NCBI GenBank assembly: GCA_024275415.1 | Contig: JAJRZD010000042.1 | Coordinates: 1 to 32,000, forward strand | From: an archaeon | Lineage (GTDB): Archaea > Asgardarchaeota > Thorarchaeia > Thorarchaeales > Thorarchaeaceae | Reading direction: 5' to 3' | DNA: 32,000 nt | Part shown: positions 13,965-22,569 of the stretch, piece after piece | How positions within the stretch are numbered: the first letter of the stretch is position 1 | Layout of the letters: each line of letters starts with the position of its first letter | Made by a program: the position numbers and the translations under genes | The notes under the pieces: model-generated | What the model was told of the DNA's origin: nothing | What the model saw: the letters and a program-made list of their open reading frames with translations, nothing else | The model's database searches: none

Positions 13965-15302
13965 TCATCCTGAAGTGACTTTGACTTCATCTAGTACCAA
14001 CGAGGGTGTGATGATGGAGGAATCTTTGCGAACATCATTTCCAACCCTGCTGACTTTCATGAGGAGTTCTCTCATGTTTATTCCAAACAGGGTGTTCTTC
14101 AAAGGATGGACTAGTTCTCCTCGCTCGATGTAGAAGCCCTCTGTAATCGTAGCACTTAGGTCGCCAGTAGTCATGTTGGGACTGTCCCCGGTATTGATGC
14201 AGAGAACTCCCTTATCTACCTCGGATATAAGGTCATCTAGGCTCCCCGACCCTGGTTGGATGATAAAGTTTGATGAAGATATTGATGGTATCCCTGCGTA
14301 GGAGGGACGGCTCGCACTACCCGTATTCGGAACATCATCCTTGAAGGCAGTATATGAATTGTGCAACAATGACTTCAAAACGCCCCGGTCAAGTACCAAC
14401 GTTCGCTGTGTTGGGAAGCCCTCACCATCATAAGGACCGGAGCCGAGTCCTCCCTTTAATAGGGCATCATCGATGATTGAGAGAGATTCCGAGGCAATTT
14501 GATGTCCTAGACAGTCCGAAATATAGGATCGACCGTATTGTACTTCTTCCGCATCTACAGCACCAGCAAACCCTCCTCCGAGAATGATACGTGCTGCAAG
14601 GGGAGCTAATATGACCGGAAGTGTTCCGCCTTCAATGGTCTTCCCTCCAAGATTACGGACTGCTTTCTTCGAAGCTGTAGAACCAACCCATTCGGGATCA
14701 AGGTCTCGTAGATTCCGAGTAGATTGGTATTCGAAGCTCGACGTTCGGGCATCATCGTTTCGGATTAGTGAAGAAGAGGATATCATTACAGATGCGAGAG
14801 AGATAGTCCGAGATATTCCTAGCGAGTTGGCGATGGCAAAGGTTCCTGCGGAAGCAGCCAGTCGTGCCTCGACAGATACCTCATACTGCCCAACTTCCTG
14901 TAAAGAAGCGTCCACCGTTCTGATAATCAGCTCGGCTGCATCTTCCGGTTGTAACCGGGGTATTTCAGGATCAAATAGTCCTTGGACATCTGGATAACGT
15001 CCTTCATAAGATGGTAGGCTCACAAAATCAGGATCGGGTATTGATGCCTTGGCAATCTTGACAGATTTTGTAATTGCCTCAAGATAGTCAGATTCCTGTA
15101 TCGTTGTCACAAAAGCAAAACCGATTTTTTTTCCAACCACTGAGCGGATGCCAACACCAGCATCACGAATATCCTCGGCGGTCTTGATTGAGTTATTTTC
15201 TACATCTATAGAGAAAGACTTGGTTGATGATACAAACACCTCTGCCTGATGAGCCCCAGACTCCAGTGCCTTGCTTACTGCTTTCTCAGCTATGTCCAAC
15301 AC
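13965..15302 (-). CDS. pmbA: TldE/PmbA, non-catalytic subunit
   Basis: GAHQAEVF, GVGIR, PYDGEG-x-PT, LHNSYTA, TG-x-A-x-R, TGDLS; no HExxxH. Start moved to GTG 15302, just after the tldD stop. Confidence 0.9.
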   Translation of the reverse strand: MLDIAEKAVSKALESGAHQAEVFVSSTKSFSIDVENNSIKTAEDIRDAGVGIRSVVGKKIGFAFVTTIQESDYLEAITKSVKIAKASIPDPDFVSLPSYEGRYPDVQGLFDPEIPRLQPEDAAELIIRTVDASLQEVGQYEVSVEARLAASAGTFAIANSLGISRTISLASVMISSSSLIRNDDARTSSFEYQSTRNLRDLDPEWVGSTASKKAVRNLGGKTIEGGTLPVILAPLAARIILGGGFAGAVDAEEVQYGRSYISDCLGHQIASESLSIIDDALLKGGLGSGPYDGEGFPTQRTLVLDRGVLKSLLHNSYTAFKDDVPNTGSASRPSYAGIPSISSSNFIIQPGSGSLDDLISEVDKGVLCINTGDSPNMTTGDLSATITEGFYIERGELVHPLKNTLFGINMRELLMKVSRVGNDVRKDSSIITPSLVLDEVKVTSG

Positions 15303-15312
15303 TATATTCAGT

Positions 15313-16698
15313 CTACACACCTCCAACAGGGACAGATCGTATTCGTACATGGGGACCACCTGTCGTATCAGGCACCGTCTGGCCAAACTTCCCACATGTG
15401 CCCGCTTCGAGTTCAATGTCCTTGGCAACGGCATCGATTTTAGACAAGATGTCCAATATCTGATTTGCAACGGATACATCGCGAACTAGTTGTCCAAGTT
15501 CACCATTGGTGATTAGGTAACCATGATCTGCTTGGAACACAAATTGCCCTTTAGAGGGATTAGTATAGCCGTAGTTGACACCACATAACAGTAGACCAGA
15601 AGCAGTATCTTCTATCAGTTCTACACTACTCCAGTCCCCAGGTTCCATGAAGGTATTGCTCATCCTAGGAATTGGAATGTCCATGTAAGATTGTGCCCTT
15701 GCAGAGCCATTAGGATGCATCCCAAGCCGACTGGATGTTTCGAGACTATGAAGCAGCTCTTCCAGTCGCCCTTCCTGCACCAACGAGTGTTTCGATGCCT
15801 TGGTTCCCTCCCAGTCATACTCAAACGACCCGCGCAGGTGCGGAAGGGTTGGGTCATCGGTGATAGAAAGGTACTCAGGGCCAACTATTTTGCCAACCTT
15901 GTCCTCAAGCACAGTAGAATGAGCAAGCCAATTGTCGGCTTCACATGCATGGCCGAATGCTTCGTGAGTCATTACACCGTTGAGGGCAGGGTCAAGTATG
16001 ACATCAAAGACGCCCCCCTCGACGGCCTTGCTGTCAAGTAATCGTATTGCGTGCTCTGCTGCGGAAATGCCAATATTCAACGAATCCTCTCGCTGGAACA
16101 CCTCGAACCCACCACGCATGCTAACTGATTTGAATCCACTTTGTCGATTAGTCCCATCCTTAGAGGTGGGAGTGGAAATGATGCGAGGGAGAGAATTCTC
16201 GACATAGACACTGGTTCCGAGTGAGTTTGCGATAAAAAGTTCGACCCACCTCTCGCCATATAACGTATGGGTGTTGACTATGCGAGGATCATAATCTCTT
16301 GCTTGGTCATCAATTGCCTTCACATACTTGACCTTGTCCTCGAAGCTGATGTCATGAAAATGTGTCTTTGGCCGGAACTCCGACTTTCCAGAAAAGGATG
16401 GACCTTCGATCTCAAATCGCTCCGAAGTCTTGGAACGTGTCGCCAGCGCCAGTCTTGCCACAGATATTCCTATTTCCCTCATCGCGTCAGGGGACAAGTC
16501 TGTGGTCTGAGCAAATGCCCAAGCACCATCTATGAATGCACGGATACCTGCACCCTTCGACCTCGATGCAATGGAACCCTTGGAAACCCCATTGGTTATT
16601 TCAATCACCGTGGTTGTGGTGTTCACGATACGGATGTCCGCAAATGAAACGCCAGTGTTTAGTGCTGATTCTATAGCAAGTCGAGCAAGATGTTCCAT
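15313..16698 (-). CDS. tldD: TldD metalloprotease
   Basis: FADIR, THEAFGHACEAD (HExxGH), YDWEGT, NGSARAQSY, PIPRMSNT, CGK-x-GQ-x-VP-x3-GGPH. Start moved to ATG 16698. Confidence 0.93.
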   Translation of the reverse strand: MEHLARLAIESALNTGVSFADIRIVNTTTTVIEITNGVSKGSIASRSKGAGIRAFIDGAWAFAQTTDLSPDAMREIGISVARLALATRSKTSERFEIEGPSFSGKSEFRPKTHFHDISFEDKVKYVKAIDDQARDYDPRIVNTHTLYGERWVELFIANSLGTSVYVENSLPRIISTPTSKDGTNRQSGFKSVSMRGGFEVFQREDSLNIGISAAEHAIRLLDSKAVEGGVFDVILDPALNGVMTHEAFGHACEADNWLAHSTVLEDKVGKIVGPEYLSITDDPTLPHLRGSFEYDWEGTKASKHSLVQEGRLEELLHSLETSSRLGMHPNGSARAQSYMDIPIPRMSNTFMEPGDWSSVELIEDTASGLLLCGVNYGYTNPSKGQFVFQADHGYLITNGELGQLVRDVSVANQILDILSKIDAVAKDIELEAGTCGKFGQTVPDTTGGPHVRIRSVPVGGV

Positions 16699-16714
16699 GT
16701 TTATCGCCCATTGA

Positions 16715-16790
16715 TATGACCGCATCGGCAGTTAGGATTATAATTTCTCTTACGACCGCATATTGTTACGACCATATGTGTTCGACGTAA
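16715..16790. repeat. Short direct repeats TTACGACCGCATAT (16750-16763), TTACGACCATAT (16766-16777) and TATGACCGCAT (16715-16725) in the tldD / steadiness-box gene divergent promoter
   Basis: Read directly; an inverted CGTAA also occurs at 16786-16790. Confidence 0.5.
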
Positions 16791-16847: not shown

Positions 16848-18416
16848 TTGAGAGAAGATTCGATTCGACCGTCTTGCCAAGAGTGTGAGTCAAATCGTGC
16901 AACCCACTACTGTGAAGATTGTGGTGCTGTCTTATGTATGGGCTGCCTTGAGAGCAAGGAAACAGAATACCTGCTTTGCAGAGAGTGTCACACGAACCTC
17001 GGCGACATGACAAAGGAAAGCAAGATCAAGTCCTGTCCGGAGTGTGAATCAGAGGAAGTAGGAAAGGGAAGAAAGGTCGAAGAGATATGCCCTCAATGTC
17101 ACTCGTTGCGAATCCAAAATATCGAAGAGAAACGAAGATCAATAGCCCAACAACTGCGTGCTGCAATCAAACAGCTCCATTATGGGCATACAAAGATACG
17201 CGAGTTCAACAACGCTCTGACTGCGGCTAAGAGACTGCTCTATTCACTCAGGATGGCCAATTTTCTCCACTACAAATGGCTTGAGGACAACATTGAGAGC
17301 TTGCAGGAAGAAACGGTGGCATTGAAGAACCGAGTTATGAACCAAGCAGAGATTGTTGCCAAACGGATCGCAGCAGAAACCAAAGGTCTCATCGACTACA
17401 CCAGATGGACCACTGAGCAGTTCCCGTTCATTGAGGGTGTCACAAACAGAGTGATGCAGATTGGTGAACGGTACAAGAGGAATGTGGATGATGCCTTGCA
17501 GACGGCTAGAGCTGCTCTTGAAGATATCACAAAGCAGTTAGAAGGTCTCGATTATTACAGAAAACGATTTGCTGGGTTCTACGAGGTCACGGAATTAGCA
17601 GTGAACGAGCTACCGGTTTGTGCCCTTCCGGATATACGGATTGCAGGAAGCGATTTCCTCCGGAATGTCAAAGCGAATGGGATACTTTACATCACCAATA
17701 GAAGAATCGTATTCATTGCAGAGATTGGTCTGATGCGCAAGAAGATGGAAGTTATCTTCGACTTCCCACTCATGTATTTGACATCTATCGAAGAGGATGG
17801 TAGATTCCGAAAGAGGTTGATACTCCGGATGAAACAGGGAGATATCAAGATAGCATGCAACGAGCAGACCCAGAAGGTACTGCCTGACTATGTGGAGATT
17901 GGAAGAAGGTTTGAGCGGTATCAGCAAACAGATCTCCAACGTGTGAGGAAAATCGAACAGACTGACACGAATATGAGCGATGTGCGAATAAAAATCGAAA
18001 CACTTGTACACTCACTATTGTCGAGTGATAGACATAGAATAGAAACAACACACACTCCAAGAGAGAGCATCCCCTATGAGAGCTACCAAAAATATGATGG
18101 GGCATATCCTCAGAGCGTGCGTCAACCATACGAGTATCCTTCAAGGCAATATGACCATCCTAGTATGAATATAAGAAGAATTGATTATCCAAGGGGTGTG
18201 AATGCCTACCAAAGAGGAGATCTACACGCCCTGCAGCAAGATGCAATGGAGCTAGAAAAAGCCATCACTGAAACAAAGGAGATGTTCAGGGCAGGGAGAA
18301 TAGTGCCGGAGGACTTCATCCGTAGATACAGAGTACTGATGAGAGATGCCTATGTAACTCAGCAGGAGATAAGGAAATTGCAACGAGGAAGCCGAGAGCC
18401 AGACTGGATGTACTAA
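16848..18416 (+). CDS. Multidomain ESCRT-I-like adaptor: B-box-like Zn finger + Zn ribbon - coiled coil - PH/GRAM/GLUE-like - Pro/Tyr linker - steadiness box (Vps23/37-like)
   Basis: TTG start after GGAGG; six CxxC pairs in residues 10-84; GILYITNRRIVF...FPLMYLTSIEE PH-like core; C-terminal ELEKAITETKEMFRAGRIVPEDFIRRYRVLMRDAY resembles the TSG101/Vps23 steadiness box. Adjacent to ESCRT-III. Confidence 0.75.
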   Translation: MREDSIRPSCQECESNRATHYCEDCGAVLCMGCLESKETEYLLCRECHTNLGDMTKESKIKSCPECESEEVGKGRKVEEICPQCHSLRIQNIEEKRRSIAQQLRAAIKQLHYGHTKIREFNNALTAAKRLLYSLRMANFLHYKWLEDNIESLQEETVALKNRVMNQAEIVAKRIAAETKGLIDYTRWTTEQFPFIEGVTNRVMQIGERYKRNVDDALQTARAALEDITKQLEGLDYYRKRFAGFYEVTELAVNELPVCALPDIRIAGSDFLRNVKANGILYITNRRIVFIAEIGLMRKKMEVIFDFPLMYLTSIEEDGRFRKRLILRMKQGDIKIACNEQTQKVLPDYVEIGRRFERYQQTDLQRVRKIEQTDTNMSDVRIKIETLVHSLLSSDRHRIETTHTPRESIPYESYQKYDGAYPQSVRQPYEYPSRQYDHPSMNIRRIDYPRGVNAYQRGDLHALQQDAMELEKAITETKEMFRAGRIVPEDFIRRYRVLMRDAYVTQQEIRKLQRGSREPDWMY

Positions 18417-19039
18417 ACATCCAGTTCTCGTTCTAGAGCCTTGATGGCTTCCTCAAGCTTCTCAGTTTCATTCAACGGTTTTGCAGTCACGGAAACCTCA
18501 GCTGCGACTCCTGCCTCCGCATCAATCTCAGCCATGGCTGCTGCCAAATCTTCTGAGGTGATTTGGGCGTCCCCGGTCGAATCGAATGCCTCTGCGGTTA
18601 TCCCGCTCTCAATCTCGAATTCTTCCAGACGACGAGCAATCTCATCGACATTCTCAACGACTTTTGTGACATCTGTAGCATCGCCCAATAGGCCAAGTAT
18701 CTTCGCAACTTGATTGAGTGCTTGTGACGCCTTTGCGGTCGTTTGTGCTCGGGTCACATGAGCGAGAATCTTTAGGATTTGCAACCGGGATTTGTCTACA
18801 CCCAAGGCGAATCTTCTGAATCGAACCATCTCACTGGCGTATGTCCTATACGCCTCCAAATTGCCGGTCTTCCTAGCTCGAATTGCTCTGTTCTTTGTGT
18901 CGCGCTCTTCCTTCTCCAACTTGTTTCGTTGTCGCTCAAGCTGTTTGGCCAGTATGCGAAGCTGCGATGTCACCTCATTGATATCAGGTTTTTTTCGGCC
19001 CCATGAGAATGCCTTTCTAAATGCACCCAAAATTCTCAC
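18413..19039 (-). CDS. ESCRT-III subunit, Vps2/24/46 class
   Basis: Amphipathic N-terminus (MRILGAFRKAFSWGRKK), basic hairpin, ARKTGNLEAYRTYASEMVRFRR (compare CHMP2 A-x-KGQ-x-DA-x-K-x2-AKDLVR-x-RR), acidic C-half, MIM1-like EKLEEAIKALERE. Confidence 0.9.
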   Translation of the reverse strand: MRILGAFRKAFSWGRKKPDINEVTSQLRILAKQLERQRNKLEKEERDTKNRAIRARKTGNLEAYRTYASEMVRFRRFALGVDKSRLQILKILAHVTRAQTTAKASQALNQVAKILGLLGDATDVTKVVENVDEIARRLEEFEIESGITAEAFDSTGDAQITSEDLAAAMAEIDAEAGVAAEVSVTAKPLNETEKLEEAIKALERELDV

Positions 19040-19213: not shown

Positions 19214-20443
19214 ATGTCATCAGACGGCGCTGACCGAGTCGACCAAGGTTTGAAGAATCTACTAGACAAGGCAATTGACCTTGATAACCGGGGCATGAAA
19301 AAAGAGGCATCCCGCTACTATCTGAAAGCTAGCAAGATTCTGATCAAACTGTCCAACTCGGCATCCCTCCCTTCAGTGCGCAAGCACTACTTGAAACGTG
19401 CTCAAGAGTGTGTTGACCGAGTGCGATTCATCTCGGGTATCAAGAATATCGCAAGTTACTCCGTGGATGGCTTGAGCAGGCCAGTTCCGAAGGCATCGCC
19501 CTCCGCAAGTGTAGGTGACGGAAGGAGGGCCGAGGCTATCACAGAAGAGGACGAGGATGCTAAACGTCTGAAGGACATGATTGCAGATACCATAATTTAC
19601 GAGAAACCAAACGTGAAGATGTCTGAAGTAGCAGGATTAGAGGACGCAAAACAGGCGATTATTGATGCCATAATCGCACCTATGAAACACCCTGAACTCT
19701 TCAAAGGTAAAGCAAGACAGCCATGGAGGGGAATACTCTTCTATGGCCCTGCGGGGTGTGGGAAAACTCTGATTGCAAAAGCGGTTGCGTCAGAGGTGGA
19801 TGCGACATTCTTCAATGTTTCAGCAGCAAATATCGTCAGCAAGTGGCTTGGCGAGTCTGAACGGTTGGTGAAGAATCTGTTCGAGATGGCCCGTATGAAC
19901 CAACCTTCCATCGTGTTCGTCGATGAGTTAGACTCTGTAGGTGGAGCGCGTTCGGGCGATGACGTAGGTGGAGAGCGAAGGCTCAAAACACAACTGCTGA
20001 CTGAGATGCAGGGTCTTGCCAGTGTTTCGGAAGACCGTGTTACAGTAATTGGTGCCACAAACTTGCCGTGGGAAATAGATTTTGCACTGCGCTCCAGATT
20101 TGAGAAAAGAATCTATGTGCCATTACCAAATAGGGAAGCACGCAGAAGAATCTTCGAGATTCATATGGAAGATGTCGATATCGAACCAGATGTAAACTTC
20201 GATGAGTTGTCCGACCTTACGGAAGGCTATAGTGGTAGAGATATCAGCGTAATCTGCAGAGAGGCAGCCATGGAACCAATCAGAGACCTTCAGATCTCTG
20301 GGCGCATGGATGACAATGAGGAGATAATCGAGCTGAGAAAAGTATCGCGAGAGGACTTCCTGAAAGCCATCGAGAATATCAGACCGGCAACCTCTCCTGA
20401 GGATCTGAAGAAGTACACGGACTGGGCGGAGGAGGGTTCCTAG
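19214..20443 (+). CDS. vps4: Vps4 AAA ATPase with N-terminal MIT domain
   Basis: MIT (LLDKAIDLD...EA-x2-YY...YL-x-RA); Walker A GPAGCGKT; pore loop SKWLGESE; Walker B VFVDELD; GATNLPW; C-terminal Vps4 helix. No beta-domain. Confidence 0.95.
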   Translation: MSSDGADRVDQGLKNLLDKAIDLDNRGMKKEASRYYLKASKILIKLSNSASLPSVRKHYLKRAQECVDRVRFISGIKNIASYSVDGLSRPVPKASPSASVGDGRRAEAITEEDEDAKRLKDMIADTIIYEKPNVKMSEVAGLEDAKQAIIDAIIAPMKHPELFKGKARQPWRGILFYGPAGCGKTLIAKAVASEVDATFFNVSAANIVSKWLGESERLVKNLFEMARMNQPSIVFVDELDSVGGARSGDDVGGERRLKTQLLTEMQGLASVSEDRVTVIGATNLPWEIDFALRSRFEKRIYVPLPNREARRRIFEIHMEDVDIEPDVNFDELSDLTEGYSGRDISVICREAAMEPIRDLQISGRMDDNEEIIELRKVSREDFLKAIENIRPATSPEDLKKYTDWAEEGS

Positions 20444-20446
20444 CCT

Positions 20447-21163
20447 GTGGGCATGAAAGAGAAACGCAGGGAGAAGAAGACCAAAACGAAGGGTCAAGTG
20501 CGTCCAATAGAAGTAGAAGAGCCAAAGTCACAAAAAATAGGGGAAACATTGGCAGTGCAGCCATCCGAGGACACTACCAGTGGACATGTAGATGAAATAG
20601 TTGAGATAAAATCACACACTGAAACGGTCGCTAAATCGGAGATTGTTACTGAGCCTGAGATTATCCTTCCTTCATGGGGTGATATCACAGAATCGGAGTG
20701 GATGTATTCGATTCCGCCAAGAAAGGAAGACAGTACGATGTGGGCAGAGGAATGGGGAGATTTCCTTTTGGAGTGGGCACAGTCCAAGTCAGTCCATGTG
20801 ATCTCATTATCAACATTCCTGAAAGAAATCCCATTCAAAGATATGGTACGAAAGGTGGATGCGTTTCGCCTCATCGGGGATTGCCTAGTCAAGAAAGAAG
20901 TGGCTGATTGGCTGGACAGGGGAAGACGACAGCTCCGGATATACTGGAAGCCTCTTGAAGAGTGGGCAGATATCCTATACGAGTGGGCTCTCCAGACTGG
21001 GAACACCTTTCTGGATCTGAAGTCAATCATCATTCAAGAGGCAGATGAGGAGTTTGCCAAGCTTCCTGAGAGGGACATCGGAATCCTGTTGTCTATGCTG
21101 GTAGAGAAGGGGTCGGCGGAGTGGATAGATAAGAAGAAGTTCGCGATAAAGATCCAATTCTAG
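20447..21163 (+). CDS. vps25: ESCRT-II Vps25/EAP20 homologue with charged N-terminal extension
   Basis: WMYSIPP...WAEEWGDFLLEW and IYWKPLEEWADILYEWALQTG match the two Vps25 WH repeats (eukaryotic YSFPP...W and W-x2-PEEW-x3-IY-x-W). GGAGGG RBS at 20431-20436. Confidence 0.88.
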   Translation: MGMKEKRREKKTKTKGQVRPIEVEEPKSQKIGETLAVQPSEDTTSGHVDEIVEIKSHTETVAKSEIVTEPEIILPSWGDITESEWMYSIPPRKEDSTMWAEEWGDFLLEWAQSKSVHVISLSTFLKEIPFKDMVRKVDAFRLIGDCLVKKEVADWLDRGRRQLRIYWKPLEEWADILYEWALQTGNTFLDLKSIIIQEADEEFAKLPERDIGILLSMLVEKGSAEWIDKKKFAIKIQF

Positions 21164-22092
21164 GATGAGTCCAGTATATCACGACGGACTTCTGGGGATG
21201 GTGTGTTCTCTTGAGACGTTCTTGTACGCAGTCCGGGGAAGTAGTAGCGGCCTCCAGTACTGAACCTGATGTCAGCAACAGCCATCCCAACATCTACGAG
21301 GCTGGTCAGAACCTGACGCGCGTGTTCCTCAGACCATTTGAACTGGAGCATGATCTCTTCCACGGATGTGTACCCCTTGATTGCAGCAAGATTGACTACA
21401 TCTGCTTGGTCACGCCTCAGCTCCAGTGGACGAAGCTCGACCACCTTCACACCACCGCGCAATGTCCTAATTCCAGGAATAAGCCCGTGCTCTGATACTC
21501 TATTTACGGCCTCGATGACATCGTTGTAGCTAACGGATCTGAACTGTGGCAAGCGTTTCACGACCTCAACAATGAGTTCTGCAAGGCCCATGATCCCCTT
21601 CGATGCATGGATTGTTGCAACATCTAGCACTGCCAGACCAAGCTGGTCATAATATTCATCCAGCGTCAATCCATTCAGCGACTGTTGGGGTTTCCGGTCG
21701 TATAGGTTCAGAAGGGTGGATGCGTCAGGAAACTGCTCGAAGATATGCGCACCATCAAGGAACGTGGCGACATCTATACCCATTCGTCGTAGCTCGTCTA
21801 TTTGGGTTCTAACCTCGTGTACTAGTGCTTCAGATTCCCGACGGTACGAACCAACATCGACAGCGCCAAGGTCGTATATCTTTTTCAGCTGGTCAAGTGT
21901 CGCGATTGATGCAAATAGTTCTGATTGTATGCTCTCGTACATTTGCCACTGACCTTCTGCTAGATAGACTGCACCAAGGATAGGAAACGCGGATTGACCT
22001 TTAAGGGATAGTATTATGTGGTTTATACGAAGCAGGTTGATGTCCGAATCGTCAGAGATACCATGTTTCAAATCATTCAGAGTTAAGGGCAT
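21160..22092 (-). CDS. Vps28-N-like / Vps22-36 (EAP30) fusion protein
   Basis: C-terminal half DEYYDQLGLAVLDV...KGIMGLAEL...ELRRDQADVVNLA...GYTSVEEI...KWSEEHARQVL...GMAVAD...YYFPGL matches EAP30. Residues 50-128 (YESIQSELFASIATLDQLKKIYDLGAVDVGSY...F...P-x-A) match the Vps28 N-terminus. Confidence 0.85.
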   Translation of the reverse strand: MPLTLNDLKHGISDDSDINLLRINHIILSLKGQSAFPILGAVYLAEGQWQMYESIQSELFASIATLDQLKKIYDLGAVDVGSYRRESEALVHEVRTQIDELRRMGIDVATFLDGAHIFEQFPDASTLLNLYDRKPQQSLNGLTLDEYYDQLGLAVLDVATIHASKGIMGLAELIVEVVKRLPQFRSVSYNDVIEAVNRVSEHGLIPGIRTLRGGVKVVELRPLELRRDQADVVNLAAIKGYTSVEEIMLQFKWSEEHARQVLTSLVDVGMAVADIRFSTGGRYYFPGLRTRTSQENTPSPEVRRDILDSS

Positions 22093-22127
22093 TGAATTAG
22101 TTAGTACACGAATACTCCGAAGTCAAG

Positions 22128-22134
22128 TTTTATA
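22128..22134 (-). promoter_or_regulatory. TATA box (TATAAAA) of the Vps28-Vps22/36 gene
   Basis: About 36 nt upstream of ATG 22092, consistent with a near-leaderless transcript. Confidence 0.55.
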
Positions 22135-22321
22135 TCAGAATGATGCATAATAGGTTCTTGACGAAAATGTCACGAGGTTATTACACATTTCCGAATTGGC
22201 TCCACACCAGTGGACGCTAGTTTGAAATGCCCTCCTCGTGATGTCCGTTCTCACTTTTCTTGGTCCTCGCGGGGAGGAGGAATTCAAGTCGTGTAGTAAC
22301 CTCAAAAGAGGTGAAAAGAAA

Positions 22322-22522
22322 ATGTCAGGTCGTGTATCTTCAAGACGAAGGCGTAAAGCAAGACGAGAAATGATCAAGGATGAGTTGAGATGCTATATCG
22401 ATGCGTTTGATGACCTCATCAGCGGCTCGGAGAGAAAGAGAAACTTCACGAATCGAAAGTATAATCGACCGACAGCAAACCATAGGAACCTCGAAAAAAC
22501 ATGGATTGTTCAGCAGCACTAG
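22322..22522 (+). CDS. Small Arg-rich hypothetical protein (66 aa, MSGRVSSRRRRKARRE...)
   Basis: Ideal RBS GAGGTGA (22308-22314) 7 nt before ATG; fills an otherwise empty gap; T-rich tract at 22558-22570 downstream. Confidence 0.45.
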   Translation: MSGRVSSRRRRKARREMIKDELRCYIDAFDDLISGSERKRNFTNRKYNRPTANHRNLEKTWIVQQH

Positions 22523-22569
22523 TAAAGAGAAGGAGAGTGCCGATAGATGGCACTCCATTTCCTTTATTT

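Follow-up and report, generated by a model that had tools for sequence, protein, structure and literature searches.

In eukaryotes, Vps28 and Vps22 are encoded by separate genes. The eukaryotic ESCRT-I headpiece is built of three hairpins; the N-terminal hairpin of Vps28 (Vps28-N) packs against the steadiness box (SB) of Vps23 (2F6M, 2CAZ, 6VME), and the C-terminal four-helix bundle of Vps28 links to ESCRT-II. A gene in the 32,000-nucleotide stretch of Thorarchaeial DNA that we analysed (hereafter, the window) raises the question of whether the two complexes may instead be joined within a single polypeptide. The original prediction held that a Vps28 N-terminal hairpin is fused here to a Vps22/36 body, that the product is a covalent bridge from ESCRT-I to ESCRT-II, and that the fusion bears on how the two complexes were joined ancestrally. 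We herein examine the extent of the gene, the identity of its two parts, its distribution among Asgard archaea, its putative binding partner and its origin.

The gene and its start codon

The gene sits in an open reading frame (ORF) of 310 codons on the minus strand (21160-22092), in which the residues that had suggested Vps28, YESIQSELFASIATLDQLKKIYDLGAVDVGSYRRESEALV...IDVATFL...FPDA, are all present, encoded at window positions 21709-21945. Searching for homologues gave 127 proteins, whose matches span about 79% of the ORF; all the named ones are from Thorarchaeota, almost all are 245-260 aa long, and the nearest relatives are 81-87% identical to the protein of this metagenome-assembled genome (MAG). 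More than 100 homologue N-termini align with Met51 of the ORF, while the part upstream of it is unconserved and missing in nearly all of them. Since the homologues start at Met51 and the upstream part is not conserved, we take Met51 as the true start, which gives a protein of 260 aa; residue numbers in the original prediction were thus 50 too high, and its residues 50-128 correspond to 1-78 in the 260-aa numbering. The Met51 ATG is preceded, at a distance of 9 nt, by a GAAGGT motif. The upstream ATG at 22092 was rejected as the start on the same two grounds, homologue starts and lack of conservation. The gene and the remainder of its ORF are as follows:

21160..21942, minus strand: actual coding sequence (260 aa and stop codon) of the Vps28N-Vps22 fusion (homologue starts; EAP30, E 2e-14; human SNF8/Vps22, E 4e-18)
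21943..22092, minus strand: in-frame upstream ORF extension of 50 codons, probably outside the protein (unconserved; absent from nearly all homologues)

We also noted a TATA-like box upstream of the ATG at 22092; the mRNA may carry an extended 5' leader, or that start may be used in rare cases. In the 630-nt gap upstream of the fusion gene we found no vps28 remnant, no RNA gene and no small conserved ORF. The gap is kept in two close relatives only.

The C-terminal body of the protein

The 260-aa protein divides into four parts:

21703..21942, minus strand: Vps28 N-terminal (steadiness-box) domain, residues 1-80 (sequence, profile and structure matches)
21664..21702, minus strand: low-confidence linker, residues 81-93, likely the fusion junction (pLDDT below 50 at 83-88; alignment ends)
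21433..21663, minus strand: first winged-helix domain of the Vps22 core, residues 94-170 (Pfam, SNF8, AlphaFold, Foldseek)
21238..21414, minus strand: second winged-helix domain of the Vps22 core, residues 177-235 (Pfam, SNF8, AlphaFold, Foldseek)

The body was recognized by Pfam EAP30 (PF04157), which matches ORF residues 136-274 with E 2e-14 and 54 bits against a cut-off of 26.8; the match begins at profile position 77 and leaves the N-terminal helical region of the family (positions 1-76) unmatched. Human SNF8/Vps22 is the best solved relative (E 4e-18), and its residue 93 pairs with residue 94 of the real protein (ORF 144). Two winged helices are seen when the 260-aa protein is modelled with AlphaFold (pLDDT 76), and a Foldseek search with this model placed Vps22 chains best (2zme_A, E 7.5e-8), with Vps36 behind (1.7e-4). 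The C-terminal body is Vps22-like. Hence, the EAP30/Vps22 winged helices of the predicted "Vps22/36" body stand, while the Vps36 part of that label is dropped, the body being closer to Vps22 by both SNF8 and Foldseek.

The N-terminal domain is a homologue of Vps28-N

Single-sequence searches of the N-domain against Pfam and PDB profiles gave sub-threshold Vps28 matches amid noise and were indecisive alone. Matches to Pfam VPS28 (PF03997) were weak (E 0.13 and 0.052; 12.4-13.8 bits), and the whole fusion protein falls below the gathering cut-off of that family, 24.5 bits. Weak PF03997 matches were found in 14 of the 17 family members, the best with E 5e-4, and one related member, P0126, matches Vps23_core with E 0.034. 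Clearer results came from searches against individual Asgard proteins and their profiles. In a phmmer search of 1.84e9 representatives, residues 5-81 matched residues 20-96 of P0261 with E 7.1e-5; P0261 is a Jordarchaeales protein of 222 aa that matches PF03997 over positions 3-188 of 188 (E 3e-17) and whose C-terminal half matches solved Vps28 C-terminal domains. BLASTP aligned the N-domain of the fusion with P0261 over 76 residues without gaps, at 34% identity and E 2e-13. A word-index homologue search with the Jordarchaeales Vps28 gave close relatives only. Moreover, a profile of 46 Thorarchaeial N-termini matched Asgard Vps28 sequences, drawn from our genome searches, with an hhalign probability of 99.5% (E 4e-23, 82 columns), and a second profile-profile comparison by another tool gave 99.2% and E 2.4e-19. 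The Thorarchaeial N-domain profile also matches the canonical Vps28 genes of other Asgard genomes with E 1e-12 to 1e-20.

Structural comparisons gave the same domain. The AlphaFold model of residues 1-95 (pLDDT 88.5) consists of a hairpin (helices 2-24 and 30-53) and three short helices, and a Foldseek search with it returned Vps28-N chains (6VME, 2F6M, 2CAZ, 2P22) at all of ranks 1-11, with TM scores of 0.51-0.71, most above 0.64, over about 80 columns and with an rmsd of 2.5-2.7 Å for most; the E-values were only 0.07-1 and, for a small helical domain, are weak taken alone. The VIA structural aligner, which is independent of Foldseek, ranked first human VPS28 (6vme_E, Z 11.3, rmsd 2.0 Å) and second yeast Vps28 (2caz_E, Z 8.9, rmsd 2.1 Å), each with 78 aligned residues and with chain identities checked. 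All other VIA matches had Z of at most 7.9 and covered the hairpin only. In this comparison, the hairpin could be superposed on the C-terminal domain of Vps23, whose steadiness box (PF09454) is a simple two-helix hairpin at the end of a coiled-coil stalk, with Z 7.4 for 2p22_A and 7.2 for 2f66_A (57 residues at an rmsd of 1.9 Å in each case), and on CdvA (Z 7.3, rmsd 0.8 Å, 54 aligned); the Vps28-N matches were clearly better. Residues 1-80 are homologous to the helical headpiece (steadiness-box) domain at the N-terminus of Vps28, and the central element of the original prediction is confirmed by the phmmer, hhalign and structural matches.

We then considered what the fusion protein lacks in comparison with its two parent families. 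By hhalign, the full-length Thorarchaeial protein aligned with canonical Asgard Vps22 at 100%, albeit only from residue 63 onward; its N-domain scored 1.7% against canonical Asgard Vps22 N-termini, and the latter scored 0.5% against Vps28-N. The usual N-terminal helices of Vps22 are replaced, not supplemented, by the Vps28-N domain. The Vps28 alignment stops at approximately residue 85, and the confident Vps22 alignment begins at approximately residue 94. The C-terminal four-helix bundle of Vps28 is absent, there being no room for it between the domains, and an Asgard Vps28-CTD profile search of the genome found no match at E ≤1. Thus, as had been predicted, Vps28-N runs straight into the winged helices, through a linker of about 13 residues and without the C-terminal bundle.

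Distribution of the fusion among Asgard archaea

We surveyed 251 Asgard genomes, including the family of the source genome (f1, 59 genomes) and a family represented by a single genome (f2). PF03997 was matched above its cut-off in 157 of 191 non-Thorarchaeial Asgard genomes versus 1 of the 59 genomes of f1, and in 2 of 87 genomes of the whole class. The Thorarchaeial N-domain profile matched exactly one site per genome: in non-Thorarchaeial genomes this single match was vps28 (canonical, about 215-230 aa) and never vps22, while 54 of 59 f1 genomes and the one f2 genome had a match of the fusion type, in a frame of 250-280 aa; in f2 the gene adjoins vps25 and vps4 (locus L004). A scan of species-representative genomes found 76 fusion loci, all in Thorarchaeota-type MAGs, including SMTZ1-45 and AB_25. 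The source genome is 92.9% complete, and its only Vps28-like sequence is the N-terminus of the fusion. The fusion was found across Thorarchaeia and in none of the other sampled Asgard families, which keep separate, adjacent vps28 and vps22 genes, and Thorarchaeia are without canonical Vps28. The protein set of Hatano et al. (2022) includes no separate Thorarchaeial Vps28.

A Thorarchaeial family of 411-aa proteins (P0348; source-genome copy at C11:20100-21365) was considered as a stand-alone Vps28; comparison with Asgard Vps28 profiles gave 0.4% by hhalign and no significant match by hmmsearch. The matches of the family to PF03997, over profile positions 10-185, are weak (P0348, E 0.011; best 1e-5 across the class), and the source-genome copy matches Vps5-BAR weakly. 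It is probably the "Vps5-BAR-Vps28" fusion described for Thorarchaeia by Eme et al. (2023), a report in view of which some Vps28-like function may persist elsewhere in this class. Weak matches of the Vps28-N profile in a 1042-aa membrane protein (C106) and in a 544-aa ORF (C30) were judged to be due to chance.

The ESCRT gene cluster and a modelled docking partner

The fusion gene is the last of a five-gene cluster in the order SB adaptor, ESCRT-III, Vps4, Vps25, Vps22, the adaptor lying four genes from Vps22:

16848..18416, plus strand: Znr_CC_PH_SB adaptor, 522 aa, proposed docking partner (weak Pfam B-box, GRAM/bPH and Vps23_core matches)
18165..18413, plus strand: C-terminal steadiness-box region of the adaptor, residues 440-522 (Vps23_core, E 0.026 over residues 469-510)
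18413..19039, minus strand: ESCRT-III (Snf7 family) subunit (PF03357, E 7e-11)
19214..20443, plus strand: Vps4 AAA ATPase with MIT, AAA and Vps4_C domains (domain matches)
20447..21163, plus strand: Vps25-like subunit of ESCRT-II, convergent with vps22 and overlapping it by 4 nt at the stop regions (PF05871, E 4e-14)

The gene order is identical in Thorarchaeota AB_25, and at least five more MAGs have matching locus-tag spacing. In Hatano et al. (2022), the AB_25 homologue of the adaptor, ThorAB25_08990, is labelled "SB", and ThorAB25_09030, labelled "Vps22", is a homologue of our protein with the same N-terminal sequence. Makarova et al. (2024; PMC10936438) list the adaptor family as cog.011556; it is composed of zinc ribbons, a coiled coil, a PH/GRAM-like domain and a C-terminal steadiness box of the Vps23 type, in which R481, G483, E488, F490, R492, R493, Y494, L497 and R499 are invariant or nearly so. 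Elsewhere, the genome encodes a second EAP30 protein, a 779-aa paralogue with canonical N-helices. No third headpiece hairpin was identified in the Thorarchaeial system.

A complex of Vps22 residues 1-95 with adaptor residues 440-522 was modelled. The model scored 0.73, versus 0.02 for the best of three controls; solved complexes of the same kind exist (Vps23-C:Vps28-N: 2F6M, 2F66, 2CAZ, 2P22, 6VME), so that the pass may stem from resemblance to them and not from binding by this particular copy. The same mark was attained in 58 of the 80 solved complexes tested and in 2 of the 110 mismatched pairs, counts that calibrate the score only roughly, as the model was computed with our own alignments. 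The runs agree in at least 83% of the contacts, with a pLDDT of at least 71 for the partner. In the modelled interface, helix 1 of the Vps28-type domain (residues 3-22) faces adaptor residues 480-506, and in both families these are the stretches with the highest conservation.

Discussion

We consider it moderately probable that the whole explanation holds, i.e., that Thorarchaeia possess a Vps22 whose head is a Vps28-N domain, that this protein arose by deletion, and that it docks on the SB adaptor. In such an arrangement, the Vps28-type hairpin would pack through its conserved first helix against the C-terminal Vps23-type steadiness box of the adaptor, as in our complex model, and an ESCRT-I-like cargo and membrane adaptor would thereby be tied directly to the ESCRT-II core. 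The core, in which assembly of Vps22 with Vps25 into ESCRT-II is predicted from the adjacency of their genes, would pass the signal through Vps25 to ESCRT-III and Vps4, and neither a contact of the Vps28 C-terminal domain with Vps36 nor a ubiquitin/UEV module would be required; Thorarchaeota have been reported to be without ubiquitin, and also without UEV-Vps23. The covalent bridge between ESCRT-I and ESCRT-II put forward in the original prediction is plausible in view of the complex model and the conserved synteny. As a more tentative but realistic proposal, one junction deletion in the ancestor of Thorarchaeia may have hard-wired ESCRT-II to a ubiquitin-independent zinc-ribbon/PH adaptor via SB-SB pairing, giving a minimal ESCRT-I/II supercomplex.

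Possibly, the Vps28-type domain is instead an oligomerization element that replaces the Vps22 N-helices, acting in Vps22-Vps22 pairing or in pairing with the 779-aa EAP30 paralogue (an ESCRT-II stalk), and not an ESCRT-I dock, although we regard this as rather unlikely. The yeast two-hybrid data for Thorarchaeial ESCRT-II orthologues in Hatano et al. (2022) include self-interaction of Thorarchaeota Vps22, which fits a dimerizing N-domain equally well but could also use the winged helices. The domain equals the canonical helices in position and length, and the N-terminal helices of eukaryotic Vps22/Vps36 are thought to promote pairing (Makarova et al., 2024; PMC10936438); however, the fold of Vps28-N is kept as a whole, short helices included. 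Similarly, the presence in the genome of a second EAP30 protein with canonical N-helices would suit an oligomerization role, whereas the most conserved face of the domain is the one modelled against the Vps23-type box. The docking and oligomerization roles are compatible.

As regards the origin of the fusion, at 28 of 30 non-Thorarchaeial Asgard loci vps28 is followed directly by vps22 on the same strand, often only a few bases apart, the other two loci ending at a contig edge. In a tree of the winged-helix part, the fusions cluster among canonical Asgard Vps22 (support of 100 for the Thorarchaeial group and SH-aLRT 87 for its grouping with the f2 type) and stand apart from the clade of EAP30 proteins of about 770 aa; the tree has no root, and its support for a single origin of the fusions is only moderate (SH-aLRT 87). 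Because vps28 lies directly upstream of vps22 in other Asgard archaea, a deletion at their junction is the likely origin. We envisage one fusion event in the stem of Thorarchaeia, by an in-frame deletion that would have taken out the 3' half of vps28 together with the first (5') third of vps22, the next gene; such a loss, of the Vps28 linker and C-terminal bundle and of the Vps22 N-helices, would yield precisely this protein, with the junction in the disordered linker. Since the fusion is confined to Thorarchaeia, is nested among unfused Asgard Vps22 and has an adjacent gene pair as its counterpart elsewhere, it is most likely a derived Thorarchaeial trait that arose from adjacent vps28 and vps22 genes.

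The opposite course, in which the fusion is the ancestral ESCRT-I/II arrangement and separate Vps28 and Vps22 came about by later fission, is very unlikely. ESCRT modules have often been fused or split in Asgard archaea (Hatano et al., 2022; Makarova et al., 2024, PMC10936438), and an unrooted winged-helix tree would allow it, yet most other Asgard families sampled have separate, adjacent vps28 and vps22 genes, the fusion is limited to one order with its winged-helix part nested among canonical Vps22, and a fission would leave two parts, the C-terminal bundle of Vps28 and the N-helices of Vps22, to be gained de novo. The fusion, found in Thorarchaeia only, nested among unfused Vps22 and most likely derived from a gene pair, thus fails to bear on the ancestral ESCRT-I/II link as had been suggested, and it is uninformative on the ancestral state of the eukaryotic machinery. 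Finally, the notion that the segment is just an ordinary set of Vps22 N-helices, with the same length and layout as in human Vps22, or a generic hairpin, a common motif, that resembles Vps28-N by chance, as the sub-threshold single-sequence Pfam matches (E 0.13, 0.052) and the Foldseek E-values of at least 0.07 might suggest, is barely credible, given that hhalign assigns it at 99.5% to Vps28-N and at 1.7% to canonical Vps22 N-termini, that the significant database-wide phmmer match is a full-length Vps28, that the VIA match at Z 11.3 spans all 80 residues and is well above other hairpins, and that the one profile match in each non-Thorarchaeial genome is Vps28, not Vps22; the segment is neither an unrelated fold nor the normal N-helices of Vps22.

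Relation to known systems

This domain architecture has been published before: Makarova et al. (2024, mBio; PMC10936438) described the Asgard Vps22 (asCOG cog.002769, "Vps22#") as "fused to an SB", and their Table S3 gives, for residues 1-70 of the Thorarchaeota Vps22 KXH75178.1 against the PF03997 VPS28 N-terminal domain (SB), an HHpred probability of 99. Our fusion gene has every part of the Vps22# layout, namely the SB-type N-domain, the two winged helices and the setting in an ESCRT cluster of an Asgard archaeon; as the Thorarchaeota Vps22# it is the same protein family with the same lineage and domain call, and nothing essential differs. In that paper, however, the fusion is stated for Asgard Vps22 generally, whereas in our survey the Vps28-type domain was detectable in Thorarchaeia only. 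The refinements that we add, i.e., the restriction to Thorarchaeia, the replacement of the N-helices, the likely deletion origin and the modelled docking partner, are modest; we found no statement of the junction-deletion origin or of the specific SB-SB pairing in the papers that we consulted. What the arrangement suggests is that the link between the cargo-recognizing and membrane-deforming parts of the ESCRT machinery can be covalent, with the Vps28 C-terminal bundle and ubiquitin dispensable, and that Thorarchaeia may offer a simple natural system for reconstituting the ESCRT-I/II/III cascade.

In comparison with Vps28 (PF03997), which is present in eukaryotes and most Asgard archaea, the N-domain of the fusion has the same fold, 32-34% identity to Asgard Vps28-N and a like modelled pairing with a Vps23-type box; unlike Vps28, the fusion is without the C-terminal bundle, scores below the Pfam cut-off and has its N-domain joined covalently to ESCRT-II. 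With Vps22/SNF8/EAP30 (PF04157; 3CUQ, 2ZME, 1U5T) it shares the tandem winged helices, a similar length (260 versus 258 aa) and an adjacent vps25, but the N-terminal helical region of that family is replaced in the fusion by Vps28-N. The canonical Asgard row of vps23-like, vps28 and vps22 genes contains the two halves of the fusion, correctly ordered and on the same strand; there, in contrast, they belong to two separate, complete proteins, a Vps28 with its C-terminal bundle and a Vps22 with its own N-helices. The UEV-Vps23-Vps28 fusion of Heimdallarchaeota, as presented by Hatano et al. (2022), likewise joins ESCRT modules that are separate in eukaryotes; however, it unites two ESCRT-I subunits and keeps ubiquitin binding, whereas the Thorarchaeial fusion combines an ESCRT-I with an ESCRT-II component in a lineage without ubiquitin or UEV-Vps23.

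A second EAP30 protein and a possible partner of the fusion

The genome that carries the Vps28N-Vps22 fusion encodes, outside the window, a further protein of the EAP30 (Vps22/Vps36-type ESCRT-II) family:

contig C28:45584-47920 (L041:133-2469), + strand: second EAP30 protein, 779 aa

Its C-terminal ~225 residues fit the canonical Vps22 profile, ordinary N-helices included (E 7e-44), and are preceded by an Ig-like CarboxypepD_reg domain and a coiled coil; together with other proteins of ~770 aa it forms a distinct clade (support 100*). This protein may be a Vps36-like partner of the Vps28N-Vps22 fusion.

Small genes for the Vps28 C-terminal domain alone were observed at three loci of other Asgard genomes (L017:2087-2368, L021:2080-2391 and L029:2085-2369), in each case immediately 3' of a full vps28, and they are followed by a canonical vps22 in L021 and L029, while L017 reaches the contig edge first. 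At the same three loci, an iterated Vps28 search also found a C-terminal hairpin (Vps23-type steadiness box) in the product of the gene 5' of vps28.

The ESCRT cluster and its surroundings

The Vps25-like protein of the window carries a Lys/Glu/Thr-rich N-terminal extension of ~85 residues (residues 1-85; window 20447-20700), which matched no family. N-terminal subdomains, some of them steadiness-box-like, have been described on Asgard Vps25 (Makarova et al., PMC10936438); none was detectable in the extension of the window Vps25.

The protein-database version of the adaptor (P0349, 492 aa) starts 30 residues further in than the form initiated at the TTG codon at 16848. Since this TTG start retains the first conserved CxxC pairs common to adaptor homologues (region 16848-16940), the longer form is probably the right one. 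The cluster is flanked by the following features:

13965-16725, - strand: two tandem PmbA/TldD-family metallopeptidase genes, adjoining the ESCRT cluster
21943-22569: gene-poor gap of ~630 nt separating vps22 from the gene for Asp/Asn-tRNA synthetase

The PmbA/TldD pair and, further upstream, the arginyl-tRNA synthetase and TFIIB genes are ordinary housekeeping genes. Within the gap, which contains a TATAAAA motif near 22130, ~300 nt are conserved at 71-76% identity in two close relatives only. An Rfam search of 21943-22569 returned nothing credible (one chance-level lncRNA match at E 0.65, which scored 18.9 bits where the gathering score is 80 bits). The gap contained no tRNA, and its small ORFs had no Pfam match.

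A helical family of Thorarchaeia with weak Vps28 matches

A helical protein family present across Thorarchaeia is also represented in this genome, outside the window:

contig C11:20100-21365 (L043): 411-aa helical protein; congener copy P0348, L009:1743-2978

Its members give weak matches to positions 10-185 of the Pfam Vps28 profile PF03997 (P0348 at E 0.011, the strongest match in the class at 1e-5) and are not recognized by Asgard Vps28 profiles; the copy of this genome additionally shows a weak Vps5-BAR match at its C-terminus (E 0.23). The 411-aa family probably corresponds to the Vps5-BAR fused to Vps28 reported by Eme et al. (2023).
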